Source of the DNA: Nostoc punctiforme PCC 73102
GTDB lineage: Bacteria; Cyanobacteriota; Cyanobacteriia; Cyanobacteriales; Nostocaceae
Direction of reading: 5' to 3'
Assembly: GCF_000020025.1 (NCBI RefSeq)
Contig: NC_010631.1
Span: 240,001 to 272,000, forward strand
Length of the DNA stretch: 32,000 bases
Part shown: positions 4,393-30,488 of the stretch, piece by piece
Position numbering within the stretch: the stretch's first letter is position 1
How the letters are laid out: every line of letters starts with the position of its first letter
The notes under the pieces: model-generated
Databases searched by the model: none
The model's input: the letters and a program-made list of their open reading frames with translations, nothing else
Told to the model about the DNA's origin: nothing
Made by a program: the position numbers and the translations under genes

Positions 4393-4420
4393 TTGACAAA
4401 TAAGTACTTGTTGCTAAAAT
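4393..4420 (+). promoter_or_regulatory. near-consensus sigma70-type promoter (TTGACA-16 nt-TAAAAT)
   Basis: TTGACA lies at 4393-4398 and TAAAAT at 4415-4420, with a 16-nt spacer. It points rightward into the IS and, before insertion, toward the 5865 gene. An imperfect inverted repeat (gtactatttattg / caaataagtac) overlaps the -35. Confidence 0.45.
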
Positions 4421-4451
4421 CTTTTAACAAAGCCAGGGTAAGTTGAGTTAG

Positions 4452-5810
4452 CGGGACTTAAACAAAAGTTAAGAGCGAAAAAGAGTATAATACTTAGCTA
4501 GCATAGCTTTCACGTCGAAAAAAGCTCATGAAAGAAACCACCCCCGCAGCCATGCCCCCATGCTTTGAAAGATGGTGTCAACGGTTTGATGATGTATTTA
4601 CTCATAAAGCTCAAAAAAGAGAATTTAGACACTATGTAGGGGGATTATTGGGTGAAAGTGAGAGAAAGAACCTGTTTCAAATGGCAGAGAATGCCGTAGG
4701 GGTGACTTACCACCGATTACACCACTTTTTAACTGAAGCACCTTGGTCGAGTTCTCAGGTCAATGAGCGTCGGTTAGAGATCATGAACAAGTGTAGCCAG
4801 ACGAGAATTAGTAGAGGCTTTAGCCTAATCATTGATGATTCTGGGCATAGGAAAAGTGGAAATTTTACGGATGGAGTGGGAAGGCAATATATCGGAGAAA
4901 TAGGCAAAACAGATAATGGAATAGTAGTGGTAACAACACATCTATATGATGGACGAAAAAGCTTACCATTAGATATAGAGCTATATCAGCACGCTAATTC
5001 TTTAGCCGAAGGGAAACAAGACCCAGAATTTGAAAAGAAACCAGAATTAGCAATTAAATTAGTAGACCTAACTTTAAGCCGTAGGTATCAACCAGCAATA
5101 GTTATTGTAGATGCTGGATACGGCAATAATACATCCTTTTTATTAGAGTTAGAGAAGCGGCAATTAAAGTATTTAGGTGGATTAGCTAAAAATCGCAAAG
5201 TAACAGTTAATGAAAAAGATAATATTCAATCAAAAATTAGGCTAGATGAATTAGCACAATCTTTACCCCAAGAGGCTTTTACAGAAATTAGACTTAACTT
5301 AGATAAGCCCAAAACATTATGGGTAGTAACTAAAGAAGTAGAGATATCAGGTCTAAGTGGAAAGCGAAATATTGCTATCGTCATGAACGCTGAGACTTTC
5401 TCACTCGCCACTGATATTGACTATTTCATTACTAATATTTCTTCATCAATTGTCACACCACAATGGATAGTTGACACCTACTCACAGAGAAATTGGGTGG
5501 AAGTTTTTTATAGAGAAGCGAAGGGTTGGTTAGGGCTAAAAGAATATCAAGTCCGAGATAAAAGAAGTCTACTTCGACATTTTATCTTAGTTTTTTGTGC
5601 CTATACTTTTATTCTTTGGCATCAGATGACAGGTGGTTTGAGACGCCGATGGGCTAACAAACCTTTGAACACGTTTACTGAAGCAATAGATGCTTTTAGA
5701 ACAGCTATGTCTTTTCGATTTTTTGATTGGTTGACCCTGAACCGGGACGTATTTGCTGCTTACAAAGCCAGTTTGGGCTTTATTTGGGCTTAATTTTTGT
5801 TTAAGTCCCG
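4452..5810 (+). mobile_element. IS701-family (IS4-like DDE) insertion sequence, copy 1, intact
   Basis: Terminal inverted repeats are CGGGACTTAAACAAAA (4452-4467) and its reverse complement (5795-5810), extending imperfectly to about 24 nt. They are flanked by the direct repeat TTAG (4448-4451 and 5811-5814). The element carries a single transposase ORF. Confidence 0.85.
4528..5793 (+). CDS. IS701-family DDE transposase
   Basis: Shows the DDE triad context LIIDDSGHRK, IVIVDAGYGNN and the Y-2-R-3-E-6-K signature YSQRNWVEVFYREAK. The N-terminal ...YHRLHHFLTEAPWS... is typical of IS701-like transposases. Confidence 0.9.
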   Translation: MKETTPAAMPPCFERWCQRFDDVFTHKAQKREFRHYVGGLLGESERKNLFQMAENAVGVTYHRLHHFLTEAPWSSSQVNERRLEIMNKCSQTRISRGFSLIIDDSGHRKSGNFTDGVGRQYIGEIGKTDNGIVVVTTHLYDGRKSLPLDIELYQHANSLAEGKQDPEFEKKPELAIKLVDLTLSRRYQPAIVIVDAGYGNNTSFLLELEKRQLKYLGGLAKNRKVTVNEKDNIQSKIRLDELAQSLPQEAFTEIRLNLDKPKTLWVVTKEVEISGLSGKRNIAIVMNAETFSLATDIDYFITNISSSIVTPQWIVDTYSQRNWVEVFYREAKGWLGLKEYQVRDKRSLLRHFILVFCAYTFILWHQMTGGLRRRWANKPLNTFTEAIDAFRTAMSFRFFDWLTLNRDVFAAYKASLGFIWA

Positions 5811-5864
5811 TTAGTAATTTTTTAGAAATGAAATTGCGAAAAAGCAATCTAATCAGGGATTCTC

Positions 5865-8800
5865 ATGCAAGATTTATCCAATATTGACTTATTTTATGCT
5901 TATTTAGACTTAGAAATTAATAGTGAAAATAATATATACCGCATAGGATTGGTATCTCTGAATTTAACAAAAGATTTTTATCAAGAAAATCTAAATCAAG
6001 CTTACGAAGAAATAAGGAAGTTGAAAAATAGTAATTTAGCAGTGTGCGGTCATAACTTCCGCCGCTTTGATTACCCTTATCTGATTGAGCAAGAACAGCA
6101 ATTATCTTCTTGGCACATAATTGACACTTTAGAACTATCAATACTCGCTTTCCCCTTACAGCATTCGCATAAGCTAAATAAATATTATAAGCAAAGTGAA
6201 TATTCAAGTAATAATCCTCTAGAAGACGCACAGGCAACTCGATTATTACTAGGTCAACAATTAGAAGCACTATTTAAAAAGCCTGATGAAGTACAACAGA
6301 TATATATTTGGCTCCTAACTTGTGGTTGCGATGATGCAGACCTTGCATATCAACAATTTTTCAGCGATCACCTTGGTTTGAAGATTGAACAACCCGCCAT
6401 AGAAATGCTGCCAGAAACAATGTTGAAAAGAATAAATCAATCCTATTTGCAGCAGCTATGGTCTAGTCCACAAACTTATGATTTTGAGATAAGATTATGC
6501 GTGGCGGGTTTACTGGCTTGGAACTATGAGTGCAATACCAATGAATCGAAGCAGGTTTTTTGTGATTGGCTCAGACATTTAAATGGTTTTCAAGCTGTAC
6601 TTGAGAATTTGCGTCCTTTAAGTACAGATGAATTCGCTATCAGTTCTTACTTGGAATATTTTGAAATTCCCAGTTTTCGACCTTTGCAGTCAGAAGCTGT
6701 CCAAGCAATTATTAATAATGACCGTCCACTTGTTCTGATGCCTACTGGCGGTGGTAAATCTTTGTGCTATCAATTGCCAGCATTCATGTTCCATGAAAGG
6801 CACAAAGCACTGACTATTGTAATTTCACCGCTACAAGCATTAATGGCAGATCAGGTAGCAGATTTAGAACAAGCTGGGTTTTTCTTTTCCACCTTTATTA
6901 ATGGTAATCTTTCAGCAGCAGAACGCCGCCAACGGCTCGAAGAACTGCGTTTTGGTTCCAAAGGTTTGCTATATATCAGTCCTGAGCAACTGCGGTCAAT
7001 GAGTATTCGGGCATTGCTAGAACAGCGTCCTCCCGTCCTTTGGGTAATTGATGAGGCTCACTGTGTTAGCCAATGGGGTCACGATTTTCGACCAGATTAT
7101 CGCTACATACCAAAATTTATTCAGGAGTTATATCAAGAGCGGCAGCTTGCAATGCCTTTGTTAGCTTTGATGACAGCAACAGCAACAGTCAAAGTTGTTG
7201 AAGATATTAAAAAGCTATTTGCTCAATATCAGTTAAATATTAATCGTACAATTGATGGGGCAATAACCAGAGAAAATCTGACTTTTCAGGTCATTCCAGT
7301 AGCAGGGAATAAAGAGCAAGTCTTACTAGAACAAGTTAAAGAAGCTATTAAACTTGGTGGTAGTACACTAGTTTATACTACTACACGCAAGAATGCCGAA
7401 AAACTGGCAGAACTTCTCAACCAAAGTCATATTAAAGCTAAATACTATCATGGCAAACTTGCAAAAGAAAAGAAACAGGAAGTTTTGCAAGAATTCAAAT
7501 CAGGTAAATTGAACGTAATCACTGCGACTTGTGCATTTGGTATGGGCATTAACCGCAAGGATGTACGAGCAGTTATTCATCATTCCATGAGTGCCAATTT
7601 AGAAGGTTATGTTCAAGAAGCTGGACGGGCAGGGCGTGATGGAGAGCCAGCAGTTTGTACTTTACTATTTGACCCAAAAGATGCTGATACAGTTTTTCGT
7701 TTGCAAAGCTTGAACCAATTGAGCGAACAAGATTTGAAAAATGTCTTGATCTCAACCAGACATATTCGCGATCGCACTTTTGGGAGTGCCAGAGATGATT
7801 GGTTTTGGGTTACAACTAATGAAATCTTTCAAGAGGGCGACTTTGATGAAGAGCTTGGGGAAGATTCAGAACAGCAAAATACTAAAATTAAAGTAGGTTT
7901 GCATTACTTAGAAAACTTCGGTTTATTAGAAAGAGCCGAGAACTTTTCCAGCTTTATCCAATTTGAATTGAGCCATAATACTTTTGCAGAGTCTATGGAG
8001 CAGTTTGAGAAATATAATCAGATTAAGAGTTTATCTCGGTTTGAGGCAGATAACTTTGAGCGGTTGATTCAGGCAATGCACGTTGCTAAAGCTTATTGTA
8101 GTACTAATGATGAACCGTTTCCCCTAGATCGTCTCAGCGATGAAGCTGGCATTAGTTTACATGACCTGACTGCTAGAATTCGAGAACTACAAAGGGCTGA
8201 AGTCTGTTCTTTTGAAATACCAATTACCCTTGTGATTACCAAGGGCGTAAGAGGGGATGCCCGTAAAAACCACGAACGTATTCGTCAGCTAGAAGACCAA
8301 TTGCTCAATGCACTTAATGAGCTATTTGGTAATGAAAATGAAATACAAATAAATCTGCGCGGACTTGCTTCTCGACTCGACCCAGACAATAGTAAAAAAA
8401 TCAGAGCATCCAATATTATAGATATTTTAGAAGGATGGGTTGCTCAAAAATGGGTGAAGTTAAACCGTATAGCTCATGATGTGGTTCGATTGCGCGATAT
8501 AAAAGTTGCAGAGCATTTACCTGAACATAAAATTTTAACAGCTACAGTATTAGAAGTTTTATATCAAGCATTGGCAGATACAACAGGGGCAAGATTACCC
8601 CTGAAGTATGAACTGGGAAGGCTGGCTACTGAAGTTACCCAACAGACTAAACTTGATTGGGATAAGGAAGAGTTGGAGGTTATTCTTCTATGGCTGCACC
8701 AAAGAAAAATAATTCGATTGAGTGACGGACTAAATTTATTCCAACAGTCACTAAAAGTTCGTGTCATAAAAAATGCAAATATTTCCACAGTAACGCGCCG

Positions 8801-10892
8801 TTATCCTAGAGTCGAAGCTCATTATGAAGAGCAGACTCGCCGCACTCATTACATGGTGCAATATGGAAAGCTAAAGTTAACAGAACAGCGTCAGCAATTC
8901 GTAAGTGATTACTTTGGCACAAATCAAAAAGAATTTATTTCAAAGTATCAAATTTCGGCACAAGAGATTACCAGACCAATTCTTCCAGAAGATTATAAGC
9001 AGATTGTAGAACCATTGAACTCTGCTCAAAAAGAAATTGTTATAGCTTCAGACCCAGCAATGGCAGTGATAGCAGGCCCTGGTTCTGGTAAAACAAGAAC
9101 TATTGTTCATCGAATTGCTTATCTTGTGAAGGTTAAGCGAGTTGAGCCAAAGCGTATTTTAGTTTTAGCTTACAACCGTAATGCAGTTAGAGAATTACGG
9201 CTGCGGTTGCGAAATATTCTTGGGGAACAATCATCTCAAATTCGAGTTTTTACATTCCACGGTTTAGCATTAGCACTGTTGGGACGAACCGTAGGTGAAT
9301 ATAGTAGAACTCAGGCAATAAATTTTGATCGGCTTTTAATTGAAGCTTGCGAACTACTTGCAAAAGGCGAAGAATTTGAAGATGTTGATGATGATATTCA
9401 AGCCCGACGAATTCAACTGTTAGGTAAGTTGGAGTATATCTTCGTTGATGAATATCAAGATGTCAGTGAAAAGGAATATCGTTTGATTAAATTAATTTCT
9501 GGTTTAAATGAATCTGAGGATAAAAAGAAGTCAGTACAAATTAATCTCTGCGTTATTGGAGATGATGACCAAAATATTTTTGAATTTAATGGTGCTAATA
9601 CGAAGTATATTCTTCAATTTAAAGATGAATACAACGCAAAAACATTATTGTTGACCGCGAATTACCGTTCTACAGAAAATATTATTGAAGTTGCTAATGA
9701 GTTAATTCAAAAAAATCCAGAAAGATGTAAACAAGCTCCAGAAGAACAAATTCATATTAACTATGAGAGGCAAGGAACCAAAGGGCAGCCTGTTGTAGCT
9801 TTGAAATTCAATAACGCATTCCAACAGGCAGGCTGGATTAAAGATAAAATCCAAACATGGCTTGACTCAGGTACTTCCCCAAATGAGATTGCTATTTTAG
9901 CACGCAACTGGGATGAACTTAATCTTATAAGATTGCTATTAGAAAAAGAAAATATTTCTACTTGTGCCTTGAAAAATAATACTATATCTTTAGTCAAAAA
10001 TCGTTCTACTCATCTGCTGATTAATGCTTTAAAGAAAGACTATAGCCTAGTTTTAAATCCTGAAGAATCAGTTCAGCAAAGATTTGAGGATTTTTTTGAA
10101 CGTACTGGTCGTAGCCTAACAGAGCCTACTGTTAGAACCTTAATCAATATTGCTATAGATTTAGATCGGGAGCGAGGGTATGGGTCTGAAAATCTTGCGC
10201 TGCCCATTAGTGTTGATGAAATATTAACTGCTATCTTTGAATTTAATGAAAATGGTGAATCTTTTTTAGAAAACAAGTCAGTTCTAGTTACTAGTTTTCA
10301 TGGCTCAAAAGGTTTAGAGTTCCGTAAAATCATACTATTAGGTAATGGATTTCTAGTTAATACTGGCACAATCAAATCAGAACGTCGGCTATTTTATGTT
10401 GCTATGACTCGTGCCAAAGAAGAATTAATTGTTTGTTCTACTCAAAGGAACAATTTTGTACAAGATGCTGGTTTAATTCCTCAAGTAACTCTTTATCCTC
10501 AGATTCGACTTCCTCAATTAGTTTATTACTTTGATTTCACTCCAGGTGATGTTAATTTAGGATCTCAGATTACTCAAAATAACCAACAAATTATTAAAAA
10601 CTTAATGGAGGGTAGTCCAATTGAGCTAAAAGCCAATTTTCCTGGAAATGGTTGGAGCATTTTTACACCCAATAATCAAAAAATCGGTTATTTATCTCAC
10701 AATGCAACAGAATTTTTAAGAAACAAAGGAATTCAAGCTGGTCAGTTTGAATTCCAAAGCCATGAGGTGACAGTTAAATATATCTACCATCACATTAAAA
10801 AAGATGAGATAACAGCAGAAGTTTTAGAGGATTGGTTTGTTGTTATTCCTCAAATACGAGTGTGCAGAAGCTTACCGAACCTGATTCTATAA
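5865..10892 (+). CDS. 1675-aa fusion protein: DEDD 3'-5' exonuclease-like module + RecQ-type SF2 helicase + UvrD/PcrA-type SF1 helicase + unassigned C-terminal domain
   Basis: Exonuclease motifs: D15-L-E17 (nt 5907-5915), CGHNFRRFDYPYL, NPLEDAQATRLL. RecQ motifs: FRPLQSEAV, PTGGGKSLCYQLPA (about 6741), DEAHCVSQWGHDFRPDY (7050), MTATAT, ATCAFGMGINRKDVR, QEAGRAGRDG. UvrD motifs: AGPGSGKTRT (9075), VDEYQDVS (9444), IGDDDQNIFEFNGA, LTANYRST, FHGSKGLEF, FYVAMTRAKEEL. It is one uninterrupted ORF. Confidence 0.9.
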   Translation: MQDLSNIDLFYAYLDLEINSENNIYRIGLVSLNLTKDFYQENLNQAYEEIRKLKNSNLAVCGHNFRRFDYPYLIEQEQQLSSWHIIDTLELSILAFPLQHSHKLNKYYKQSEYSSNNPLEDAQATRLLLGQQLEALFKKPDEVQQIYIWLLTCGCDDADLAYQQFFSDHLGLKIEQPAIEMLPETMLKRINQSYLQQLWSSPQTYDFEIRLCVAGLLAWNYECNTNESKQVFCDWLRHLNGFQAVLENLRPLSTDEFAISSYLEYFEIPSFRPLQSEAVQAIINNDRPLVLMPTGGGKSLCYQLPAFMFHERHKALTIVISPLQALMADQVADLEQAGFFFSTFINGNLSAAERRQRLEELRFGSKGLLYISPEQLRSMSIRALLEQRPPVLWVIDEAHCVSQWGHDFRPDYRYIPKFIQELYQERQLAMPLLALMTATATVKVVEDIKKLFAQYQLNINRTIDGAITRENLTFQVIPVAGNKEQVLLEQVKEAIKLGGSTLVYTTTRKNAEKLAELLNQSHIKAKYYHGKLAKEKKQEVLQEFKSGKLNVITATCAFGMGINRKDVRAVIHHSMSANLEGYVQEAGRAGRDGEPAVCTLLFDPKDADTVFRLQSLNQLSEQDLKNVLISTRHIRDRTFGSARDDWFWVTTNEIFQEGDFDEELGEDSEQQNTKIKVGLHYLENFGLLERAENFSSFIQFELSHNTFAESMEQFEKYNQIKSLSRFEADNFERLIQAMHVAKAYCSTNDEPFPLDRLSDEAGISLHDLTARIRELQRAEVCSFEIPITLVITKGVRGDARKNHERIRQLEDQLLNALNELFGNENEIQINLRGLASRLDPDNSKKIRASNIIDILEGWVAQKWVKLNRIAHDVVRLRDIKVAEHLPEHKILTATVLEVLYQALADTTGARLPLKYELGRLATEVTQQTKLDWDKEELEVILLWLHQRKIIRLSDGLNLFQQSLKVRVIKNANISTVTRRYPRVEAHYEEQTRRTHYMVQYGKLKLTEQRQQFVSDYFGTNQKEFISKYQISAQEITRPILPEDYKQIVEPLNSAQKEIVIASDPAMAVIAGPGSGKTRTIVHRIAYLVKVKRVEPKRILVLAYNRNAVRELRLRLRNILGEQSSQIRVFTFHGLALALLGRTVGEYSRTQAINFDRLLIEACELLAKGEEFEDVDDDIQARRIQLLGKLEYIFVDEYQDVSEKEYRLIKLISGLNESEDKKKSVQINLCVIGDDDQNIFEFNGANTKYILQFKDEYNAKTLLLTANYRSTENIIEVANELIQKNPERCKQAPEEQIHINYERQGTKGQPVVALKFNNAFQQAGWIKDKIQTWLDSGTSPNEIAILARNWDELNLIRLLLEKENISTCALKNNTISLVKNRSTHLLINALKKDYSLVLNPEESVQQRFEDFFERTGRSLTEPTVRTLINIAIDLDRERGYGSENLALPISVDEILTAIFEFNENGESFLENKSVLVTSFHGSKGLEFRKIILLGNGFLVNTGTIKSERRLFYVAMTRAKEELIVCSTQRNNFVQDAGLIPQVTLYPQIRLPQLVYYFDFTPGDVNLGSQITQNNQQIIKNLMEGSPIELKANFPGNGWSIFTPNNQKIGYLSHNATEFLRNKGIQAGQFEFQSHEVTVKYIYHHIKKDEITAEVLEDWFVVIPQIRVCRSLPNLIL

Positions 10893-11135
10893 AATTTCAT
10901 CAGGAGATGCAAAGTTTATGGATATATTAACTTTCTGCCTTTTGTCCATGATATTCGGCGGTATGTTCGTATACCTCCTCTGGGAACTGTAAGTCCTTGT
11001 AAACGTTACGTTACAGGCATCTGGATTATTAGGATTTGGGCATATAGGAAATTCTTGCTGAGACTGCCATTGAAGAACACTCTCACGCCAAGGCTGGTTA
11101 TAATCTTTACCTTGCACAAAAAAAGTTACACCCAA
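10887..11135 (-). CDS. hypothetical protein (82 aa, TTG start), possibly a gene fragment
   Basis: Open frame only, with no ATG and no recognisable motif. Its 3' end overlaps the helicase stop by 6 nt. Confidence 0.25.
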   Translation of the reverse strand: MGVTFFVQGKDYNQPWRESVLQWQSQQEFPICPNPNNPDACNVTFTRTYSSQRRYTNIPPNIMDKRQKVNISINFASPDEIL

Positions 11136-11200
11136 AGCAAAGATAACAGAACTATTTCCAGGTTTTTCTGTAGTTTAACCTCTGCAATGACGGGGAGTAA

Positions 11201-11524
11201 TCACAAGGCATCAGTGCGATATATGGATTCAATCAACTCCTCAACTTCTTCTTCATTCAAGCATTGTTTGATTTGAGTATTGAACCACTTTATCTCTTCG
11301 GCTTCTGTGTTTTGGACTTGGTAAACCAGTAATGTTCCTGCAACACGGGCAAAAGTAAGGGGTGATGGGGACAGGTGGCTGAGTAGCTCGGATGCATTCT
11401 GGTATATATGCATGGCTGATGCTTCATCCAGAGGAGATCCTAATTGAGCGGAAAGCTGTTTTAGGCTCTCTTGAATAGACAAATGAAAGTCTGGCTCTTC
11501 CTCATGTGAAATGGGGTTACTCAT
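11201..11524 (-). CDS. acidic hypothetical protein (107 aa)
   Basis: ATG-initiated ORF with helical, acidic composition. Its start overlaps the stop of an upstream 32-codon ORF in an ATGA arrangement. Confidence 0.5.
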   Translation of the reverse strand: MSNPISHEEEPDFHLSIQESLKQLSAQLGSPLDEASAMHIYQNASELLSHLSPSPLTFARVAGTLLVYQVQNTEAEEIKWFNTQIKQCLNEEEVEELIESIYRTDAL

Positions 11525-11619
11525 AAACGCTGACCAATTAATGCAATAACTTGACGGTCTAGCTGGACTATTTCGGCTCGAATGTCTACCATATTCTCAC
11601 ATTCATTGGTTATCTTCAT
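11521..11619 (-). CDS. 32-codon ORF resembling helix 1 of AroQ chorismate mutases
   Basis: The product MKITNECENMVDIRAEIVQLDRQVIALIGQRL* matches the ..IR..I..LD..ll.Ll..R.. pattern of chorismate mutase type II N-termini. No remainder of the fold follows. Confidence 0.2.
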   Translation of the reverse strand: MKITNECENMVDIRAEIVQLDRQVIALIGQRL

Positions 11620-11667
11620 CGGCTAAAAAGCATAACTGACGAGATTAACTTTCAATCTTACAGGTAT

Positions 11668-11813
11668 TGGTTGCCATTTGTTTGGCGGACTGTGATGCTG
11701 TCCCCATCTGCCACTTGAGTAGCTATCCATTCTTCAGTAAGTGCGATGGATGGCTGGTTAGTTCTTTGGAAAATCAAGATAGCGCTGATGATAGTCCAGC
11801 GATCGCAGTTAAC
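11668..11813 (-). pseudogene. duplicated 5' fragment of the adjacent SNase gene (no start codon, frame broken)
   Basis: About 146 bp are nearly identical to 12232-12378 (codons ~11-59 of the nuclease). Small indels occur near 11780-11800 and the first 10 codons are missing. Confidence 0.75.
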
Positions 11814-11877
11814 TCGAAACCACCCTGCTTGAAATCTGCAACAAATTTTAACCGAAGTGCTGATTCTACCTTCAAAG

Positions 11878-12408
11878 CTACTTTCGTTTGTCTTGACTCC
11901 ACACTCCAGTCTTAGAAGCGATCGCTAATCTCTGGGCATTCTCGAAAGCTATTTGATTTGGGCATTCCACCCCACCAAGCCGCGTTTTAGCCAAGCCGCT
12001 TTTAAGCAGTTCTTCTTGAAAGCTAATCTCAGTATCGCTCTCTCCACGAGCCATCACTTCAGCAACAGTGCGCCCATCGCTATCTTTTGCCACTGGAATG
12101 ATCATCAGTTGGTTATTGGCAGCAGCGGCTAGCTTAAGCAACTTCTGTTTTGCTTTATTGCTCAATGCTTGTGCTGGCACTTCACCTTGTTTCATTTCTG
12201 GGGCATCAATTCCACAAAGCTCAACTGACATTTGGCTGCCATCGGTTTGGCGGACTGTGATGCTGTCCCCATCTGCCACTTGAGTAGCTATCCATTCTTC
12301 AGTAAGTGCGATGGATGGCTGGTTAGTTCTTTGGAAAATCGAGATAGCGATGATGGTAGCTCCAGCGATCGCAGTTAAGATTACGAGAGTTTTCCACAAT
12401 GGCTTCAT
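11878..12408 (-). CDS. staphylococcal-nuclease (thermonuclease, SNase) family protein with N-terminal signal/anchor
   Basis: N-terminal MKPLWKTLVILTAIAGATIIAISIF, then SNase landmarks DGDSITV, CGIDAPE, DSDGRTVAEV, ELLKSGLA and FENAQRLA..KTGVW. Confidence 0.85.
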   Translation of the reverse strand: MKPLWKTLVILTAIAGATIIAISIFQRTNQPSIALTEEWIATQVADGDSITVRQTDGSQMSVELCGIDAPEMKQGEVPAQALSNKAKQKLLKLAAAANNQLMIIPVAKDSDGRTVAEVMARGESDTEISFQEELLKSGLAKTRLGGVECPNQIAFENAQRLAIASKTGVWSQDKRK

Positions 12409-12769
12409 GTTGCGACATCTGTTGTTGGAATTTAGGAAACCACAATCCTAACTGCACGGAACATTCATCATTAGCAATTGTTTTCTCAAGTTATCTAAAC
12501 AGAGTCCAATACTGGTTCTCCTTAAGACTAGAGCAGTGCGTAGCTTACCGCCGTAGGCATCGCTGTTATTCAGCCAACTCCAGGGTAACGGTAGTAATGC
12601 AACGAGAGTATTAAATTGCAGATGTTACAGATAGCGATGTCTACTTTTTGGGGCTGTGACGCTCCTGCGTCGCTCTAAGTGAAGCTATGCCGCAGGCTTT
12701 ACGCTACGCTATCCGTGTCGCTGACACTACTAAGAAAGTGCGTTAGCGTAGCTTACCGTGGGTATCACT

Positions 12770-13216
12770 TTAGCGTTTTTGGCAATTTAGAGCGGTAGGG
12801 GCAGAAGCTTTACGCTGGGTATACTTAACTTCCCATCCAGGTAAATTCCACCAGACAACACGCTTTTTTGGCTCTAACCAAAAGTCTAATTGTTTGATTA
12901 AGCCATTCTCAAAAACTAGTTTCGGGAAGGTAGGATAGTCACGATCATCACTCTCGCTATAGTTACGTCCAAGATAGTTAAAACAAGCCTTTAATCCTTG
13001 AGCAACTCCCAACTCTTCAACTCCAATGCCTTTTAAGGTCGAATTATCGTAGCTAAAGCTGCCATTGAACGATTTGCCTGCTAAGGAGCCTTTAGTGACA
13101 TTAATTGTAAAGTCATAGCTAACAGTAGAGTTTTGGGCAAGACTTGTTGCAATTACGCCACTGCTTATAGCAGCAGATGCAATCCCAATTGCAAATTTAG
13201 GCAATAGTTTGAGCAT
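12770..13216 (-). CDS. secreted hypothetical protein sharing the N-terminal module of the PEP-CTERM protein at 20665
   Basis: Signal peptide MLKLLPKFAIGIASAAISSGVIATSLAQ. It shares the YDF..(8)..G.L.G..F.G.FSYDNS...GIG.E motif with ORF 20665..21183 but has no PEP-CTERM tail. Confidence 0.65.
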   Translation of the reverse strand: MLKLLPKFAIGIASAAISSGVIATSLAQNSTVSYDFTINVTKGSLAGKSFNGSFSYDNSTLKGIGVEELGVAQGLKACFNYLGRNYSESDDRDYPTFPKLVFENGLIKQLDFWLEPKKRVVWWNLPGWEVKYTQRKASAPTALNCQKR

Positions 13217-13259
13217 GGTAGTATTGATGTTTGAAGTTTAGTGCTTTCGGATAATTTGT

Positions 13260-13294
13260 GCGTAGACGTGCAACGGCTTGTCGATAGACATCGC
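13260..13294. repeat. 35-bp short dispersed repeat, copy A
   Basis: gcgtagacgtgcaacggcttgtcgatagacatcgc is 33/35 identical to 30826-30860. Related shorter pieces (gcgatgtctac...) occur at about 12643 and 21572. Confidence 0.8.
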
Positions 13295-13695
13295 CTATTG
13301 GAGAGATGGTCATTACCTAACTTATGCTTGGCAATGATAAAAAGCATATCATCTACTTTGATTTTGTCTAAAGGGTAGCGCAGGCAATGTTACGTGAGTC
13401 GATTGAAAGTTTGGAGTTTTTTATTCCAGATTCCGCATCGGCTTCAGTTGGAGCTACTCTGAAGAAACTTTAGGGCATCACCGCTCATCAGCAGTCCCTC
13501 TGTTCTGCGTACTGGCGTGGGTTTCACTTCTGGAAATAAGTTTAGCTGGTTCGGTTCCAAGGGTATTACGGGGAGCCTGCTACTAGCTGATTATCGCCCA
13601 GAACTGACAATTAAGAGCATTTGCCTTTGGTGTCGCCAGAATAAGGAAAATGGTAGAGTATATAGCGATCGCTACGCTAAAAATGTTTTTAAGAT

Positions 13696-14298
13696 ATGGC
13701 TGACCAAAAAGAAACAATAAAACCTTTTAAAAAAATCGCCATATTTGATATTTTCTCAGGAGAGAATTCCGAAATAATTTGTTCTGACAAATCAAAAATT
13801 GCTGCTCAAGTTAATAAATGGGTAAACAGAGCTATCAGCAACGGTGCAGATTCGTGTTATGTAAGATTATATGAGGCAAATAAAGAAAATATAGATACAA
13901 TTATTGAGAATTTATCCTACAAAATATTGCAAATTATTTTACCATTTTCTCTAAATTATAAATCTTCTTTAGTTAGTGCTTTTCATTTTAGAGAAAAAGA
14001 CCAAATTAAAATGCCAGAGGCAAAAAGCAATAATGTACTGTTTGGAAAATCATGTCACTCATTAAAATCTATAGAAGAGGCAGAGTATGAGGGATTAGAC
14101 TATGTATTTTTTTCACCAATTTTTGCAACCCCAACTCATCCAGAAGCAAAAGGTATTGGTCTAGATATGCTCACTCAAGCTTGCAAATCAACACAAATGA
14201 AAGTCTTTGCTCTTGGGGGAATTAACGAAAACAATTATCAAAAATGTCTTGATGCTGGTGCGTCTGGTATTGCAGCGATTAGTATGTTTAAAAAATAA
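13696..14298 (+). CDS. thiamine-phosphate synthase (ThiE/TenI)-family protein, AT-rich
   Basis: The C-terminal half GKSCHSLKSIEEAEYEGLDYVFFSPIFATPTHPEAKGIGLDML...VFALGGINENN...AGASGIAAISMF follows the TMP-TENI TIM-barrel pattern. The N-terminal half is weakly similar. Confidence 0.55.
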   Translation: MADQKETIKPFKKIAIFDIFSGENSEIICSDKSKIAAQVNKWVNRAISNGADSCYVRLYEANKENIDTIIENLSYKILQIILPFSLNYKSSLVSAFHFREKDQIKMPEAKSNNVLFGKSCHSLKSIEEAEYEGLDYVFFSPIFATPTHPEAKGIGLDMLTQACKSTQMKVFALGGINENNYQKCLDAGASGIAAISMFKK

Positions 14299-14494
14299 AA
14301 TATTTTTTCCATCCGAATTTTATTAGGCATACTAATTGCTGAGATTTGGTAATAATCTGTTGTGTTCAGCTTGCCAAGGACACTAACGACAGACTCGACA
14401 ATATTTTAGCTGAGTTAGATGATGAAACTTAATTAAAGAAGAAAACAGATGCACTAGAATTTAGGAGCGGAGCCGGAGACGTTTCCGTTGCTCC

Positions 14495-14526
14495 GGTCAG
14501 AATCCCTCTCGTGAGGGATTCTGACC
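14495..14526. repeat. perfect hairpin (14-bp stem, 4-nt loop) inside an about 105-bp IR-bounded element
   Basis: ggtcagaatccctc-tcgt-gagggattctgacc. It is preceded by a second stem, ccggag(14473)...ctccgg(14491). The whole is bounded by ctagaattt (14454-14462) and aaattctag (14550-14558). Confidence 0.8.
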
Positions 14527-14704
14527 CGTCACTCATTGTAGATCGCCAAAAATTCTAGTTTTGTGGGGGTCTTAAACCCATTTATTCAGACGCTCCAGGA
14601 TGAGCTAACGCTGCGCTATTCCCTATGAAGTTCAGAATACCCAACTGAATTCTGGCTCATGGCTCCTGAATTCTGTTTGATAAAACTTAATTGTGTAGTT
14701 TACT

Positions 14705-15703
14705 TTACCTCTGTCCCAACAATTGGTTTAGCACATCGGCTAGGCGATAGCCTGCCAAGCTCATTCGACGTTGGGCAATTTGTTTAGCTGTAGCAGCATA
14801 ATTTGCTGGTAAGAGTTTCCCATCATTCTTATCACTACTACCAGAAAGTTTTCCATTTAGATATGCGTCTTGTTTTGCTATTCTAAAGCTTTCCAACTTC
14901 GCCCAGTTATTAAATTTAGTTTCTCTTAATTCAGGTAATTTATTACGTTGGTAAGATGATCTAAGGCTAGTAGCAGCGTTACGAACTGCTTGAAACCTTT
15001 CGCTGCCAAGAATTAGGTCATCCCAGAATTTATGCAAACTAATCGTTTGGCTATTTGGTTTAACTCTAATGTAAAAACGTGTACCGCCTCGATCGCCTTC
15101 TGGTTGTGGGTACTGGTTAGTTATTAGTTTGGTAGTATGCAATGGCTGATGTACATCCCCTATTAAATGGAACAGCCAACATATTGCAACTGCTTTGTCA
15201 CTGTTACTGGCATTGCTTTTAACAACATCAAGGTTTTTTTGGAAAGCAAATATAATATTTTCTTCATCAGGGATTTCACGGGGAATCGAGTTTGAAGCTC
15301 TACCGGGTTGATAAGGAAAGTTAATGTAATGCCAAGTTGGATGATTAAATTCTGGGTTATCACGAGCTTCATCTGCCCATTTTGCTGCCCACATAAACAA
15401 GTACAAGTTTTTATCTTCAGGAGATATATTAGATTGATTAAGAGAGTTCCACTGTTGTTCAAACTTGGAATATTCGGGATGTTCTTTTAAAATAGCCACA
15501 ACTTTATCAAGGTTTTGCTGATTACTTTGCTTAAGTTCACTGTAAGCGATCGCTCCTGAAACCATGTGTCCAGACTTATTCCAAGCAAAAGCTGGGTGCT
15601 GCCAAATCAGGATTGTTGAGAATATTGTCAATAAAGAAAACTTAAGGGAATTTTTTGTTATGAAATAGATTTTTTGAATTGAAAGTCTCTTATTCATAAT
15701 CAT
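14705..15703 (-). CDS. S1/P1-family zinc nuclease, secreted
   Basis: The signal peptide ends ..HPAFA, and cleavage would expose W-NKSGH, the N-terminal Trp that ligands Zn in P1/S1. Also WAAKWADEAR, WHYINFPY, HLIGDVHQPLHT, GGTRF and LHKFWDD. Confidence 0.85.
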   Translation of the reverse strand: MIMNKRLSIQKIYFITKNSLKFSLLTIFSTILIWQHPAFAWNKSGHMVSGAIAYSELKQSNQQNLDKVVAILKEHPEYSKFEQQWNSLNQSNISPEDKNLYLFMWAAKWADEARDNPEFNHPTWHYINFPYQPGRASNSIPREIPDEENIIFAFQKNLDVVKSNASNSDKAVAICWLFHLIGDVHQPLHTTKLITNQYPQPEGDRGGTRFYIRVKPNSQTISLHKFWDDLILGSERFQAVRNAATSLRSSYQRNKLPELRETKFNNWAKLESFRIAKQDAYLNGKLSGSSDKNDGKLLPANYAATAKQIAQRRMSLAGYRLADVLNQLLGQR

Positions 15704-15828
15704 CTCGCTAATAATTGAGTATTAACACAAATCTTAACTTTATAATCGCACGAATCACCTGAGTCATTACCAATTCTTAAATATTGGCTTTTATACTGAA
15801 TCTTGTTGATGAGCAAAGGTAAAACTGA

Positions 15829-16941
15829 ATGAGTTTCAAAAAACTTTTTCTTGTGGCTTGTGGACTGCTTGTAGCAATAGTAATTAGTATTTTAAGCGAT
15901 ACAAAAGTAATTGCTCAATCCACCACTGATTTAGCTTTAGCTTTATATCATGCTCCTATTCACTATCAAGACACAGACAGCACCAAGTATAGTGGAGACT
16001 ACATTACACGATTTGATTACGATAACGATTGGCGAGGTACAAATAACTGGGATAACCTCATCCTTTTTCCACTTTCTGCTCATGCTTACTATTCTGTAGC
16101 TGAAACTTGTACTCATTGGTTCATTACATATTCCTTTTACCATCCTCAAGATTGGACTGATATTCCTTTCGATCAAGAACACGAAAATGATTTAGAGGGT
16201 TTACTTACAATTGTCCGTAAGGACGGTTCAGCTTTTGGTAAATTAGAAGGTGTTGTCACTGTATTTCATAACGATTTCTACTCTTACACTCCAACTGGTA
16301 GTCCTTTACGCAATGGTGCAGAAAGTATTGATGGCACACTGACAATGAATAGTTACAGTGGTTCATTGCACCCATTAACAACTCAAGAAGCTAAAGGTCA
16401 TGGATTAAAAGCTTGGCCTTATGCTGGAAACTTTAAGGGTGCAAGTAGCGAGGATGGGATTATTTACTATCCGAATGGTACTACAGCAGAACTTCCTGCT
16501 TCGGGGAATGACCGCGATGTGCAATATCAATTGCTTGATGTGTTTGCTAATAATGAAATGTGGCAACATCAATTAAATGAAGCCTCTTTATCAAGTTCTT
16601 CTGCGTTGACTTTCGCTAGTTGGGGAACTTTCAAGGGAGATTCGAGTGGTGGGTGTGGCGCTGGTACACCTACTTGCAGTACAAATTCTGCTAATACCCC
16701 TTGGGGTTGGGATGATTCAAATGATGGTGCAGTATATAAAGGTGAAATGGCTTTAGACCCTGCTCACCTAACTGATGTTTATTTTGATGGGCTTGGGACT
16801 TTTGATACTGCATACATCCGCAACCAATTTATTCAAGGATTGAAAGATAGAGGATATAATTCTGCTGTAGTTCCTCAAGGTTGGCCCACTCAAATCAATC
16901 TTAATTCTCTGATTGGCAAACTCAAAAACCAATGCTCATAA
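15829..16941 (+). CDS. secreted hypothetical protein, weak Vps62/NPP1-like signature
   Basis: Signal peptide MSFKKLFLVACGLLVAIVISILS. The YHAPIHYQDTD ... WFITYSFYHPQDW ... EHENDLEGLLTIV arrangement recalls the H-x-x-D-W-E core of Vps62/NLP-type proteins, a low-confidence assignment. nuiA starts 15 nt downstream. Confidence 0.65.
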   Translation: MSFKKLFLVACGLLVAIVISILSDTKVIAQSTTDLALALYHAPIHYQDTDSTKYSGDYITRFDYDNDWRGTNNWDNLILFPLSAHAYYSVAETCTHWFITYSFYHPQDWTDIPFDQEHENDLEGLLTIVRKDGSAFGKLEGVVTVFHNDFYSYTPTGSPLRNGAESIDGTLTMNSYSGSLHPLTTQEAKGHGLKAWPYAGNFKGASSEDGIIYYPNGTTAELPASGNDRDVQYQLLDVFANNEMWQHQLNEASLSSSSALTFASWGTFKGDSSGGCGAGTPTCSTNSANTPWGWDDSNDGAVYKGEMALDPAHLTDVYFDGLGTFDTAYIRNQFIQGLKDRGYNSAVVPQGWPTQINLNSLIGKLKNQCS

Positions 16942-16956
16942 CCATAAATAAATTTT

Positions 16957-17358
16957 ATGACTAACGAGATTACGGAAAAACTTAAACAAGCCTCCGATGG
17001 TTTGTTAATGATGAGCGAATCAGAGTATCCTTTTGAAGTTTTTTTATGGACTAATCAAGCTCAAGAACCAATAACCGCTCAAAAACTTCTCCAACTAACA
17101 GGGCATCCTCAAGATTCGCCAATAGAAGAAGTTGAATTAGAGTATTTTTTTAGGAATTGTGCCTTTGAACAAGAGTGGCATAATGAATTGCAGAAATCAG
17201 ATGTTAAGAAATTTAAAACACTTGTTGAATCCTTGAAAGATAATCTAAAGTCAATCAAGGTTTATCGCATAGGCACAAGAAATATTGATGTCTATATTAT
17301 TGGGGAAACTTTAGATGAAGACTTAGCAGGAATCTCAACAAAAGTTATTGAAACTTAG
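16957..17358 (+). CDS. nuiA: nuclease A inhibitor (NuiA) family protein
   Basis: LKQASDGLLMMSESEYPFEVFLW... and the C-terminal ..VYRIG...DVYIIGET...LAGISTKVIET match my recollection of Anabaena PCC 7120 NuiA, which is about 135 aa. The gene is convergent with a NucA-type nuclease gene. Confidence 0.8.
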   Translation: MTNEITEKLKQASDGLLMMSESEYPFEVFLWTNQAQEPITAQKLLQLTGHPQDSPIEEVELEYFFRNCAFEQEWHNELQKSDVKKFKTLVESLKDNLKSIKVYRIGTRNIDVYIIGETLDEDLAGISTKVIET

Positions 17359-17371
17359 CGAGCAAATTGCA

Positions 17372-17401
17372 AGTCTACCCACTTAATTAAGTGGGTAGAC
17401 T
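17372..17401. terminator. bidirectional rho-independent terminator between nuiA and nucA
   Basis: Perfect 30-nt palindrome agtctacccacttaa|ttaagtgggtagact, followed by ttctcgttttt on the + strand. It lies between the convergent stops at 17358 and 17427. Confidence 0.7.
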
Positions 17402-17426
17402 TTCTCGTTTTTGAAATTAGCGAAAC

Positions 17427-18779
17427 TTACAAATTATCAACTTGTGCTTCTATTACAGATTGAATAGATGTTGAAACAAGTGATAAAAAATCGAATCCGG
17501 TTAAAGATTCCAGTGAATCAACACTGACTCGGTAATTTCTCCAGTCAGCAGTCCGAACCCCTTGGGCGTTGGGAATGTTAACTGCAATCACCCTTGTAGA
17601 TGTTGTGACACCAGAGACTCCAGACCCAGGAGTGTCTAAGACAACAAGAATTTTCCAAGTGCGATTGGGAACTGTCACCTTACCACCAGCAATCGTGCTA
17701 AAAGTTCCATTGCTCCCAGTCCCACCTACGCCATATCCACCAGATATAATGTAGAGTTCTTTCCCCTGGCTAACCAGAGTTCTAGCGTAATCTTCTAAAT
17801 TAGCCCAAATCCCCTGATTGTTGTCAGGCGCTTGTGCAATCATGTTACTCATCAAAAAGGTGCTGGAGTTAACCGTAACTGTGCTAGTCCGGTCGCCTGA
17901 AGGGGTCATGTGTCCTCTATCAAATCCACTACCACTAAAATCGGTAGATTGAACTTGATAGCATCCTGCTGGTAAGGTAGTATCCGCACGAAAGTCATCT
18001 TGTCTTGGTGTGCTTCCTAACCAACTACTATTCAACTGCCAAGATACCCAATTGGCTCGTCCTAATGAACAATTGTATCCAACTGCATACTGCGCTTTAT
18101 CCAGCAAATAATTGTTTATATCTGAAGCTCCAGCACCACTGGGATTACCCATTGTTAGGTGTACACTTGTACTACCGCCGCCACCTGAAGTACCATAATC
18201 GGTGATGGTAATATCATCAATGTTAGTTCTGTTGGTAGTACCATCACTCTTGCGGACTTCACAGCGAGATGTGCCAGAGATGTTAGGCGTAAAAGTTGCA
18301 GTCTGTAAAGTTGTTGAACTAGTTGTGACTGTTGAACCTACTTGTAACCATGAAATACCACTATTACTTGAACACCACAACTGCCAATTGGTACTACCAT
18401 CAGAACCAAACTTTGCGTGTTTAATGCTAACTGTACCAGCACCAGTGCTGCGGTCAAATTTCATTGAGACTTTACCACTGTTGCGGATACGTGCAGATTG
18501 TGTACCGCTTTTTGCATCACTGGTAAGATTACCAATCAAGGCATCATCTAAATTCCAAAGACCTGTGCTGAGGGTGACATCAGAGGAAGCATAACTGCCT
18601 TTTGAGCCAGTTTCAAAACCTTCAACAGTCGTTGCACCTTTTGCACTAAATAACGTGTTGAAGGTAATTAGTAAAACTATTACTACTCCTGTCAACCACC
18701 CATTACGATAAACTTTGCGCCAAAAATTAAATAACACTAGGTCTAATTTAACCTCGTAAGTCCAGTAGTCCGTTTGCAT
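17427..18779 (-). CDS. nucA: NucA-type DNA/RNA non-specific endonuclease with N-terminal anchor and about 170-aa beta-sandwich-like extension
   Basis: The catalytic DRGHMTPSGDR (DRGH motif) and downstream ..SNMIAQAPDNNQGIW (metal Asn region) match Serratia/Anabaena NucA. The N-terminal hydrophobic segment is GWLTGVVIVLLITFNTLF. An S/T/G-rich module (aa ~50-195) and a GGGG linker precede the nuclease domain. Confidence 0.85.
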   Translation of the reverse strand: MQTDYWTYEVKLDLVLFNFWRKVYRNGWLTGVVIVLLITFNTLFSAKGATTVEGFETGSKGSYASSDVTLSTGLWNLDDALIGNLTSDAKSGTQSARIRNSGKVSMKFDRSTGAGTVSIKHAKFGSDGSTNWQLWCSSNSGISWLQVGSTVTTSSTTLQTATFTPNISGTSRCEVRKSDGTTNRTNIDDITITDYGTSGGGGSTSVHLTMGNPSGAGASDINNYLLDKAQYAVGYNCSLGRANWVSWQLNSSWLGSTPRQDDFRADTTLPAGCYQVQSTDFSGSGFDRGHMTPSGDRTSTVTVNSSTFLMSNMIAQAPDNNQGIWANLEDYARTLVSQGKELYIISGGYGVGGTGSNGTFSTIAGGKVTVPNRTWKILVVLDTPGSGVSGVTTSTRVIAVNIPNAQGVRTADWRNYRVSVDSLESLTGFDFLSLVSTSIQSVIEAQVDNL

Positions 18780-20096: not shown

Positions 20097-20196
20097 AGTG
20101 GTGCGATTGATTATGTAGTAAACAAAGACATCCTTTAATCAAGTTACTAGCTATCTTTAATTTAGCAATCAGCCTACTATACTTTCACCTCAAAAC

Positions 20197-20250
20197 TCAA
20201 ATTTTTTGCAACAAGTCAAAATTATTACAAAACTTTGTATTCTGATTTTT
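20197..20250 (-). promoter_or_regulatory. conserved about 54-nt upstream element, copy 1
   Basis: tcaaattttttgcaacaagtcaaaattattacaaaactttgtatt... is about 90 percent identical to 30411-30464. It lies about 100 nt upstream of the minus-strand start at 20096. The minus strand reads ..TGTAATAATTTTGACTT.. (extended -10-like TGnTAATAAT). Confidence 0.4.
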
Positions 20251-20664
20251 CAAACTGATGCAGTAGAGACGGCGTGGCGTTGGCAGTGGGGACGAGTACT
20301 GCAATATACTCGTAATTGAGATAATGTTAAGTCAAATAGTTGCCAATCTCCCCGCTACTCATTCCTGTATCAGATATCGCCGCATCGTCTTCTCCCTGCC
20401 TCATGTAAAGTGTTTTGCTTGCAAGCATTAGCACTTTCTAAACGGTTACTGAACGAAGGACCTGAAACGATTAAAACCTTTTTGCTCAAACTTTTAGCTA
20501 TTTTGCTTCAGGTATGGGAATATAAGAAGAAATACTAGATTTATTATGGGGGTTTCCATATACCCGCCTCCAACTTTCTTTTACTATTAGCTTTTAAGGC
20601 AATGGTAAATTAATTTTAAATCATAAAAGTAAAAACTTATACTCTTGGAATCTGGTACAATTGT

Positions 20665-22547: not shown

Positions 22548-22905
22548 GGTAACAAGAGATTTTATTTGAGGGTTCAATACCTTTGTTAAGAGCAGAGTTG
22601 ACAAGATTTATCGTAAAAACTGCCAAAATTACCTATACACAAGCTCGGAGTTGATAAGGTAACTTGGAATACTATAACTCTTACACTACTGACAATAGGT
22701 TAAAAAACCTCACAGGAAACCTTAAAAGAATTTTAAGGACTCATTGTTTTTGCCAACTTTGTCCCAGAACCGCCCGACTGTACGCCCAATCTCTGCATTT
22801 AGCCAAAACTGCGATGGCACTAGCGCCCGCCGGAGGCGAGCGCACAAGAACAACAAAAGCCGACTCAAGCAGATCGTTGAGTTTTATTCCAAATGAACTG
22901 AGATG

Positions 22906-23118
22906 TTATCCTTCCCAATTGACTAACACCCCATCCACGATCGCAATCCCCCACTGCGGAAACTTCGCCAATAATTTTTCGATCGCAATCTGCAAAGCAG
23001 GGTCATCATTCCAACACTCCTGCAAGAAATCAAACCCCGGATTATGCGCTGAATTCGCCGCAAAGCGTGAGTTTTTGCATACGTTCCGGTCGCAGACTTG
23101 ACCTTGCTACAAAGTCAT
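22906..23118 (-). pseudogene. 5'-truncated, frameshifted copy of the gene family represented by 30489..30998
   Basis: The minus strand reads ..VARSSLRPERMQKL, then a frameshift, then AANSAHNPGFDFLQECWNDDPALQIAIEKLLAKFPQWGIAIVDGVLVNWEG*. The plus-strand track ORF 22664..23101 is its antisense shadow. Confidence 0.6.
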
Positions 23119-30362: not shown

Positions 30363-30410
30363 GCTCTTATGTTTGGTGTGGCCAGGTATACTAAGCTTTC
30401 ATCCAAAGAT

Positions 30411-30464: not shown

Positions 30465-30488
30465 AACGCATCACACTTGTTACTCATT

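Follow-up and report, generated by a model that had tools for sequence, protein, structure and literature searches.

Several described proteins and complexes combine helicase motors with a nuclease. In WRN, a DnaQ-like 3'-5' exonuclease of the DEDDy type lies N-terminal to a RecQ core in one chain, which also carries an RQC region (zinc-binding site and winged helix) and an HRDC domain and has no second motor. DinG of Firmicutes (S. aureus, B. subtilis) is a bacterial exonuclease-helicase fusion with a single motor, which is XPD-like and moves 5'-3'. One report characterizes the B. subtilis protein as a 3'-5' exo(ribo)nuclease (PMC12525004). AdnAB, AddAB and RecBCD bring two helicase motor modules and a nuclease together in one multi-subunit machine with RecB-type PD-(D/E)XK nucleases; AdnAB is reported to have two UvrD-like motors (PMC3378886). 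RecQ-type cores without the canonical RQC and HRDC regions occur in DpdF of the Dpd system and in PsyrT/RqlH of PsyrTA. GajB (Gabija), Nhi, Hna and HamB (Hachiman) share the concept of a superfamily 1 (SF1) or superfamily 2 (SF2) helicase acting with a nuclease against foreign DNA. Here we describe a gene at 5865..10892 (+) in a 32,000-nucleotide stretch of DNA from Nostoc punctiforme PCC 73102 (the window), whose product of 1675 amino acids (aa) joins a DnaQ-like exonuclease fold, a RecQ-type SF2 core, about four tandem winged-helix domains, a UvrD/PcrA-type SF1A core and a C-terminal domain (Exo-RecQ-4xWH-UvrD-CTD; hereafter Exo-RecQ-UvrD).

The Exo-RecQ-UvrD protein has the WRN order of exonuclease followed by RecQ, and in this respect its N-terminus can be called WRN-like, as originally proposed; judged from their families, the two activities would also share a 3'-5' polarity. 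The analogy ends there: an Asn occupies the fifth catalytic position in place of Tyr, RQC and HRDC are absent, and the RecQ core is followed instead by about four winged helices, a motor of the UvrD type and a tail that is new. Neither the profile search that aligned 9mrc nor the Foldseek matches (both described below) revealed a specific relationship to the WRN sequence, and the two fusions are best regarded as independent. DinG provides the best structural match of the N-terminal model, but has neither the winged-helix array nor the tail. Unlike AdnAB, AddAB and RecBCD, the family is a single chain with one SF2 motor, one SF1 motor and a DnaQ-like exonuclease. The NCBIfam addA and recB models were matched weakly, through the UvrD core (73 bits each, cut-offs 861 and 696), and there was no match to a PD-(D/E)XK nuclease domain in a Pfam scan of the protein.

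DpdF and PsyrT/RqlH were the best PADLOC matches for aa 258-630, over profile positions ~16-357 of 610-689 only, and the NCBIfam DpdF score (227) was below the cut-off of 550. Genes of a Dpd cluster or the PsyrA/RqlI partner were absent among the open reading frames (ORFs) of the window, and none was conserved in the 38 loci compared below. The UvrD core matched the PADLOC GajB models, a generic SF1 similarity with no GajA partner, and none of GajB, Nhi, Hna and HamB is known to have two motors, a DnaQ-like exonuclease or a winged-helix array. Overall, the family passes the RecQ-family and UvrD-domain models and fails all equivalog cut-offs (RecQ, PcrA, UvrD, Rep, helicase IV, DpdF, AddA, RecB), and by these sequence comparisons the protein appears to be a helicase-nuclease machine outside every named family. 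The literature that we searched, whose coverage was incomplete so that this is absence of evidence only, contained no description of an Exo-RecQ-UvrD architecture. This agrees with the initial impression that the combination was unfamiliar from any characterised protein; it is not, however, peculiar to this genome, and belongs to a fixed family found in several phyla.

Segments of the Exo-RecQ-UvrD protein

The list of open reading frames in the window contains the gene as a single uninterrupted 1675-aa ORF with an ATG start. We estimate, roughly, that a 1675-codon open frame would occur by chance in 37% G+C DNA with a probability of ~1e-50. Cyanobacteria contain over 100 full-length homologues of the gene, and the ratio of nonsynonymous to synonymous substitution rates (dN/dS) between the window allele and its four closest relatives was 0.16-0.19 overall. 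The five parts that the original prediction read from this ORF were all recovered intact and conserved, and a helical subdomain was added to them. The resulting six-segment architecture is real, intact and conserved, as mapped on an alignment of 98 full-length homologues. Pfam placed both helicase cores far above gathering scores and gave no match, even at E<=10, for three stretches (aa 1-265, 615-1050 and 1530-1675).

The first of these stretches was modelled confidently by AlphaFold2 (AF2; pLDDT 92.2, pTM 0.89). The Foldseek matches listed for the model in the PDB were all DnaQ-like 3'-5' exonuclease domains or polymerases containing them, with modest E-values (3e-3 to 0.2). S. aureus DinG (9ii8) came first, followed by T7 DNA polymerase and E. 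coli Pol II, and further matches included other family-B polymerases, Rrp6, oligoribonuclease, Pan2 and REXO2. A PHROGs search with the N-terminal module matched "DNA polymerase exonuclease subunit" (E=2.7e-6), and the family profile aligned motif for motif with the DEDDh enzyme 9mrc (E=0.01). We consider the assignment of aa 1-140 (5865..6284, +) to the RNase H-like DnaQ fold sound, because the AF2 model, Foldseek, the 9mrc profile and PHROG agree.

The N-terminus has recognisable forms of the three motifs found in DnaQ-like exonucleases, Exo I (DxE), Exo II (HNxxxFD) and Exo III (xxxxD), and D15, E17, G62-H63-N64, D69, D87-T88, H102, K106, N116, P118 and D121 are invariant or nearly so. The four acidic residues of the three motifs (D15, E17, D69, D121) remain invariant when members from different phyla are compared. 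The position of the DEDDh histidine (H-x4-D) is taken by the invariant N116, which aligns with the His of 9mrc, and that of the DEDDy tyrosine (Y-x3-D) by N117, which places the module in neither class. The early description of this part as a DnaQ/DEDD-type exonuclease-like module is thus right about the fold and the four acidic residues, and has to be amended at the canonical His/Tyr, which an invariant Asn replaces. Exonuclease activity is predicted despite the substitution, and two invariant residues of the loop before it, H102 and K106, may supply the general base that is missing. Residues 141-265 (6285..6659, +), which connect the exonuclease to the RecQ core, form an all-helical subdomain in the AF2 secondary structure (pLDDT >90 over most of it) that has no Pfam or PDB sequence match.

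The RecQ-type SF2 core (aa 266-614; 6660..7706, +) was recognised by Pfam as DEAD and Helicase_C (aa 272-593) and by NCBIfam as recQ_fam (TIGR00614 subfamily; 307.6 bits, cut-off 219.8). Motifs 0-VI are present, including TGGGKS, DEAH (DEAHC), the aromatic-rich loop SQWGHDFRPDY and QEAGRAGRDG, and are invariant or nearly so across the family. The model for canonical bacterial RecQ (TIGR01389) was not reached (341.9 bits, cut-off 640.2), and its match stops at position 336 of 591. No RQC or HRDC domain was matched by Pfam anywhere in the protein, and the family conservation maps contain no conserved cysteine cluster after RecQ motif VI or in the middle region. The core is present without the usual zinc/RQC/HRDC extension, because the recQ_fam match is limited to profile positions 5-343 of 470; both the complete core and the missing cysteine cluster had been read correctly from the sequence at the outset.

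The middle region (aa 615-1050; 7707..9014, +) is the signature of the family. Its AF2 model is confident (pLDDT 87.6) and contains about four helix-helix-helix-hairpin units followed by a helical linker. Foldseek matches were weak and leaned to winged-helix proteins, including RPC62 (four extended winged-helix domains), telomerase p45C, ESCRT-II, the ROQ domain of Roquin, and MarR, ArsR and Fur. We read the region, from the model, as a probable tandem winged-helix array without a close solved relative. This agrees with the ~400 aa of wHTH-looking segments noted at first, which come to ~430 aa. A comparison of the sequence profile with the PDB was uninformative and returned noise only, including STING and a reductase.

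The second motor (aa 1051-1529; 9015..10451, +) is a UvrD/PcrA-type SF1A core, complete as predicted. Pfam UvrD-helicase/AAA_19 and UvrD_C cover aa 1051-1526 (UvrD-helicase 141.4 bits, cut-off 23; UvrD_C 86.5 bits, cut-off 25.6), and the SF1 motifs AGPGSGKT, VDEYQD, GDDDQN, NYRST and YVAMTRAK are conserved. None of the NCBIfam equivalogs for UvrD, PcrA, Rep and helicase IV was reached; the pcrA and uvrD matches were partial, and the best score was for pcrA (187 bits, cut-off 911). The chain ends in a conserved C-terminal domain (aa 1530-1675; 10452..10889, +), the tail of about 150 aa that had been left unassigned. It matched nothing in Pfam, a cross-phylum profile of it matched no PDB sequence, and it turns up only in fragments of the same family. 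Its residue pattern looks beta-rich. A HIRAN-like tail was considered on a resemblance in residue pattern and was set aside, as neither Pfam at E<=10 nor the comparison of the tail profile with PDB sequences supported it.

Distribution, loss and diversification of the family

A homologue search returned at least 120 clusters, 98 of those listed being >=1640 aa long, down to 43% identity. The listed homologues, where named, were all cyanobacterial (Nostoc, Scytonema, Calothrix, Kamptonema, Oscillatoria, Halothece, Leptolyngbya, Nodosilinea, Dolichospermum and others), and family members carry the generic database label "RecQ family ATP-dependent DNA helicase". With HMMER, the middle region was found in only 219 clusters among 1.84 billion representatives; the long matches were mostly ~1600-1900 aa, with the middle region at about residues 620-1110. 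Some cyanobacterial members have variable N-terminal extensions, including a NERD nuclease domain. The family was found in none of 50,697 phage genomes. A scan of contigs for members used one peptide pattern only, and gives no prevalence.

A tblastn search of PLSDB with the middle region gave near full-length matches on 17 plasmids, six of them cyanobacterial and some conjugative; most carriers were typed as non-mobilizable. The non-cyanobacterial matches covered 85-99% of the region at 21-25% identity and came from Thiothrix, Allochromatium, Sulfitobacter, Paracoccus, Croceicoccus, Microvirga, Aliarcobacter, Bacteroides and Phocaeicola. Five of these genes were examined and encode proteins of 1599-1756 aa. 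Four are collinear with the Nostoc protein from about residue 50-60 to 1529-1664 (27-31% identity), and the Bacteroides protein aligns over residues 11-1292. All five retain the exonuclease motifs, including N-x-P-x-x-D and H-x-L-x-K, and both ATPase sites. The phyletic spread thus takes in Cyanobacteriota, Alpha-, Beta- and Gammaproteobacteria, Campylobacterota and Bacteroidota, and further members are labelled Acidobacteriota, Accumulibacter and Ca. Ozemobacteraceae (the Acidobacteriota and Ozemobacteraceae members are from metagenome bins). The family is rare, rigid in architecture and wide in phyletic spread.

Two entries within this distribution are atypical. One member, with 44% identity in the middle region, is in a metagenome-assembled genome labelled "uncultured delta proteobacterium" (CAWEAR010000026.1, our locus L019), which points either to transfer out of cyanobacteria or to a mistake in binning. 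Two Dolichospermum entries (P0087 and P0094, 1449-1451 aa) cover only ~85% of the query; part of the protein may be absent, or the start may have been miscalled.

In the window, an IS701-family insertion sequence (IS) lies at 4452..5810 (+), 54 bp upstream of the ATG, which bears out the IS neighbour noted originally. Its transposase ORF (4528-5793) is on the same strand as the Exo-RecQ-UvrD gene, matches Pfam DDE_5, and is annotated in PLSDB as "IS701 family transposase". The element ends in perfect 16-bp terminal inverted repeats and is flanked by a TTAG target duplication (4448-4451 and 5811-5814), as read from the sequence, and the empty site is present in three relatives (L001, L038 and L048). 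The best sigma-70-like site, by consensus match (TTGACA-16-TAAAAT, 11 of 12 positions), is at 4393..4420 (+). From the position it would hold relative to the empty site, this is probably the gene's native promoter, now cut off by the IS. Since the transposase and the Exo-RecQ-UvrD gene run in the same direction, read-through from the IS is possible.

A second IS701-like transposase ORF (28178-29443, +; 421 aa) has the same length and strand as the first and is 23.65 kb away. We considered a composite transposon in which the two copies would flank the region from 5.8 to 28.2 kb. The copies are only ~84% identical in DNA over the 300-nt repeat reported, and a sister strain (L049) shares only 10428-14333 with the window, so there is no support for movement as a unit.

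The same sister strain has lost most of the gene. Homology of its 8.33-Mb chromosome to the window starts at a breakpoint at 10428, about codon 1522, and continues at 99.5% identity to 14333; the last 465 nt of the gene are kept and the first 4.56 kb are missing. Only a 95-aa remnant is called there, with an integrase and DUF3854 element genes upstream. Elsewhere, the copy on pNsp_a of Nostoc ATCC 53789 is split by IS1634, and one Nostoc punctiforme entry (P0030) is truncated at 1021 aa. The gene is dispensable.

Where the gene is kept, all of its segments are under purifying selection. In three of the four comparisons with the closest relatives dN/dS was <0.4 in every segment. The exceptions were the helical subdomain against the allele of Nostoc DedSLP03 (L002; 0.55 at very low divergence, dS 0.04) and the tail against that of Nostoc C052 (L038), where dS is saturated. 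The tail was otherwise the least constrained segment (0.33-0.37), and apart from these exceptions the segment values spanned 0.09-0.37.

Divergence is uneven along the gene, and dS varies up to ten-fold between segments of one pair. The first 420 aa are 93-97% identical to the alleles of Nostoc N6 (L001) and C052. From aa ~1261 to the end (9645..10889, +), identity to these two alleles is 47-83%, and identity to the DedSLP03 and N. minutum (L005) alleles is 78-95%; the N-terminal 420 aa thus show the opposite affinity to the C-terminal third. Because segment dS and identity affinities differ along the gene, we conclude that the distal UvrD domain and tail circulate as diverged allelic cassettes that recombine between otherwise similar genes. 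Such a pattern in the C-terminal third is typical of immune sensors.

Base composition was less informative. The gene has 36.9% G+C (27% at third codon positions) compared with 44-46% in the four left-end genes upstream of the IS and a window mean of 40.1%. It is AT-richer than those four genes, as first noted, but the figures given then were too extreme, and several other window genes are equally or more AT-rich. Codon usage is not deviant either, and as a mark of foreignness the composition adds little. We do not use G+C and codon usage as evidence for recent transfer, for which they are weak and not distinctive.

Genomic neighbourhoods and candidate functions

All-against-all clustering of ORFs from 38 loci found no neighbour common to more than four loci, and for this reason we conclude that the gene stands alone, without a conserved partner. 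The lack of partner genes seen in the window holds across these 38 loci. Homologues lie on plasmids and in variable regions of chromosomes, often near IS elements, toxin-antitoxin modules and defence genes, without conserved synteny. Among Nostoc loci, that of N6 has GmrSD, PycTM and UvrD+PD-(D/E)XK genes nearby, that of DedSLP03 has KilA-N, methylase and DUF3854 element genes, and that on the C052 plasmid has genes for a DEAD-MZB helicase and a NERD protein; a few kb from the copy on the conjugative plasmid pNsp_a there is a gene of the viperin family, paired with one for a nucleoside kinase. The neighbours are WYL and Cas6 genes in Thiothrix, a type I restriction-modification system and an integrase in Allochromatium, and IS66 and VapC in Sulfitobacter. 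In Aliarcobacter, parAB, rep genes and a gene for a type IV secretion system coupling protein are directly beside the gene, and SSB and ParA genes are near it in Bacteroides. Three further loci carry toxin-antitoxin modules. The Kamptonema copy is near purL, purF and accC as well as a PIN toxin gene, one metagenomic contig has GmrSD and a type II restriction-modification system amid NAD-biosynthesis genes, and another has metabolic genes and a transposase around the gene.

In a scan of 149 neighbour proteins, the most recurrent domains were EAD1 (4), DEAD/Helicase_C (3, of which 2 with MZB), SNase (3), and Uma2, caspase, CHAT and DUF4351 (2 each); the rest were mostly single matches, many of them metabolic. 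Taken as raw counts, these matches suggest conflict-gene neighbourhoods. On the Nostoc C052 plasmid (L038, 15113-17959) and in Mojavia pulchra (L008, 13262-16120), a DEAD/Helicase_C/MZB (DUF1998-type) helicase gene is ~100 bp downstream on the same strand. It may be an optional partner in this sub-lineage and is absent from the window.

Our best explanation of the data is that Exo-RecQ-UvrD is a self-contained, horizontally mobile DNA-processing enzyme of a rare, widespread family. We tentatively favour a role as a one-gene system against foreign DNA (phage or plasmid) that would destroy replication or entry intermediates. It is supported by the way the cassette diversifies, by the variety of nuclease add-ons, by the repeated gain and loss of the gene, and by its defence and toxin-antitoxin neighbours; it could well be correct, short of a firm assignment. 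The narrower proposal of an uncatalogued single-gene immune system, in which two motors of the same polarity (SF2 and SF1A) and a non-canonical exonuclease would be directed by the winged-helix array and diversifying cassette as a sensor, is more speculative, and we regard it as conceivable.

A mechanism can be proposed, in which the substrate and the biological role are those that we infer. RecQ and the SF1A helicases UvrD, PcrA and Rep move along DNA 3'-5', and nucleases of the DnaQ type degrade a strand from its 3' end. Target choice would fall to the winged-helix array together with the variable C-terminal third (distal UvrD domain and tail), which would pick a DNA structure or a foreign protein-DNA complex; examples would be nicks, ends with a 3' tail, and rolling-circle or fork intermediates. 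The RecQ-type and UvrD-type motors, both presumably moving 3'-5' by analogy with their relatives, would load and unwind, and the N-terminal exonuclease would digest the 3'-ended strand behind the RecQ motor. The net outcome would be removal of 3' ends and primer termini, which would be destructive rather than recombinogenic.

Several observations weigh against this defence role. The canonical His/Tyr general base is absent, and the exonuclease could be slow, inactive or purely DNA-binding. No PADLOC model (PADLOC-DB v2, including Dpd, PsyrTA, Gabija and DRT helicase) covers more than the helicase cores. Cyanobacteria average ~14 defence systems per genome, and the proximity of the family to defence genes is a matter of raw counts. 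Several copies, including that of Kamptonema, are amid ordinary metabolic genes. Identity within cyanobacteria drops roughly with taxonomic distance, which is compatible with long vertical residence, and the IS insertion may silence this particular copy.

Two of these points, housekeeping surroundings of some copies and divergence that roughly follows taxonomy, also speak for the gene being a horizontally transferable accessory factor for DNA repair, recombination or replication restart, which would process stalled forks, gaps and breaks of the host or plasmid. WRN, Firmicute DinG, and RecQ acting with a nuclease would be functional parallels. All the enzymatic modules come from families best known in repair, and the N-terminus has its top structural match in a repair protein, the exonuclease-helicase DinG of S. 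aureus. Accessory repair genes are often found on large plasmids, and the nuclease genes close to the window and Nostoc C052 copies (SNase, S1/P1, NucA/NuiA) have no obvious link to immunity. However, the gene is very rare, patchy and freely lost between near-identical strains, and no repair gene is in conserved synteny with it. A hypervariable, recombining C-terminal cassette and variable N-terminal nuclease add-ons are unusual for repair enzymes. In addition, a 3'-5' exonuclease with 3'-5' motors would be expected to strip the 3' tails needed for RecA-dependent repair. We regard a repair role as less likely than defence, but as the main rival and a serious one.

The gene might instead serve the mobile elements that carry it, in establishment after conjugation, processing of transferred single-stranded DNA, exclusion of competitors, or countering of host defences. 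It is often plasmid-borne, on conjugative and mobilizable plasmids among others; the Aliarcobacter copy, beside parAB, rep genes and a coupling-protein gene, and the Bacteroides copy, near SSB and ParA genes, fit such a function, as do the adjacent integrase and DUF3854 elements. But many copies are on chromosomes without a recognisable element nearby, no consistent linkage to genes for transfer or replication is seen, and the PLSDB carriers were mostly non-mobilizable, which makes this function improbable. It is barely credible that the ORF is an assembly chimera of recQ and uvrD or a universal, syntenic core gene of Nostocales, for which the generic RecQ label could be the only hint: independent full-length collinear homologues in complete chromosomes and plasmids of several phyla exclude the former, and the lack of conserved synteny, the deletion in the sister strain and the rarity (219 clusters in 1.84e9 representatives) exclude the latter.

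If the narrower proposal of a single-gene immune system is correct, the family would be a new mechanistic class of helicase-nuclease immunity, spread by plasmids over at least four bacterial phyla. If active as predicted, the protein would be the first characterisable single chain in which a proofreading-type exonuclease is coupled to motors of both superfamilies, RecQ (SF2) and UvrD (SF1), and it raises the mechanistic question of how two 3'-5' motors cooperate on one substrate. Its rarity, mobility, plasmid carriage, repeated loss and C-terminal diversification make it a concrete, inexpensive candidate for an anti-phage or anti-plasmid system that would be new, above all in cyanobacteria, in which few defence systems have been tried out. 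The generic label "RecQ family helicase" hides the architecture and could mislead inventories of repair genes in cyanobacteria and other phyla.

Other features of the window

Immediately downstream of the Exo-RecQ-UvrD gene, on the opposite strand, is a 107-aa ORF (11201-11524, -) with no Pfam match. It is kept beside the gene or its remnant in Nostoc DedSLP03 and in the sister strain, and not elsewhere. It is followed by a cluster of nuclease genes (11878-18779). Three of them encode an SNase that is exported or anchored in the membrane (11878-12408, -), an S1/P1 nuclease (14705-15703, -) and a non-specific endonuclease resembling NucA (17427-18779, -), and between the last two is the gene for the inhibitor NuiA (16957-17358, +). 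Portions of the cluster are found again on plasmids of Nostocales (C052, ATCC 53789 and Tolypothrix PCC 7910). A 128-nt direct repeat (11667-11794 and 12232-12359; 95% identical, 565 bp apart) has one copy inside the SNase gene, in its 5' portion, and the other just past its 3' end, a layout also found in the sister strain.

Further downstream, the product of a gene at 24867-28061 (+) has 1064 aa and combines HEAT repeats with a NACHT/NB-ARC NTPase and, at its C-terminus, an FGE-sulfatase domain; it belongs to the NLR-like STAND proteins, a type that has been implicated in immunity of bacteria. An ORF of 145-170 aa is present in three diverged paralogous copies (22664-23101, 24340-24774 and 30489-30998) with 67-85% nucleotide identity over repeat blocks; the third, the sole copy scanned, had no Pfam match. 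The first two flank a zinc-dependent dehydrogenase gene (23175-24206). Finally, a 63-nt AT-rich intergenic repeat (20191-20253 and 30404-30466, 76% identical) is possibly a shared regulatory element.

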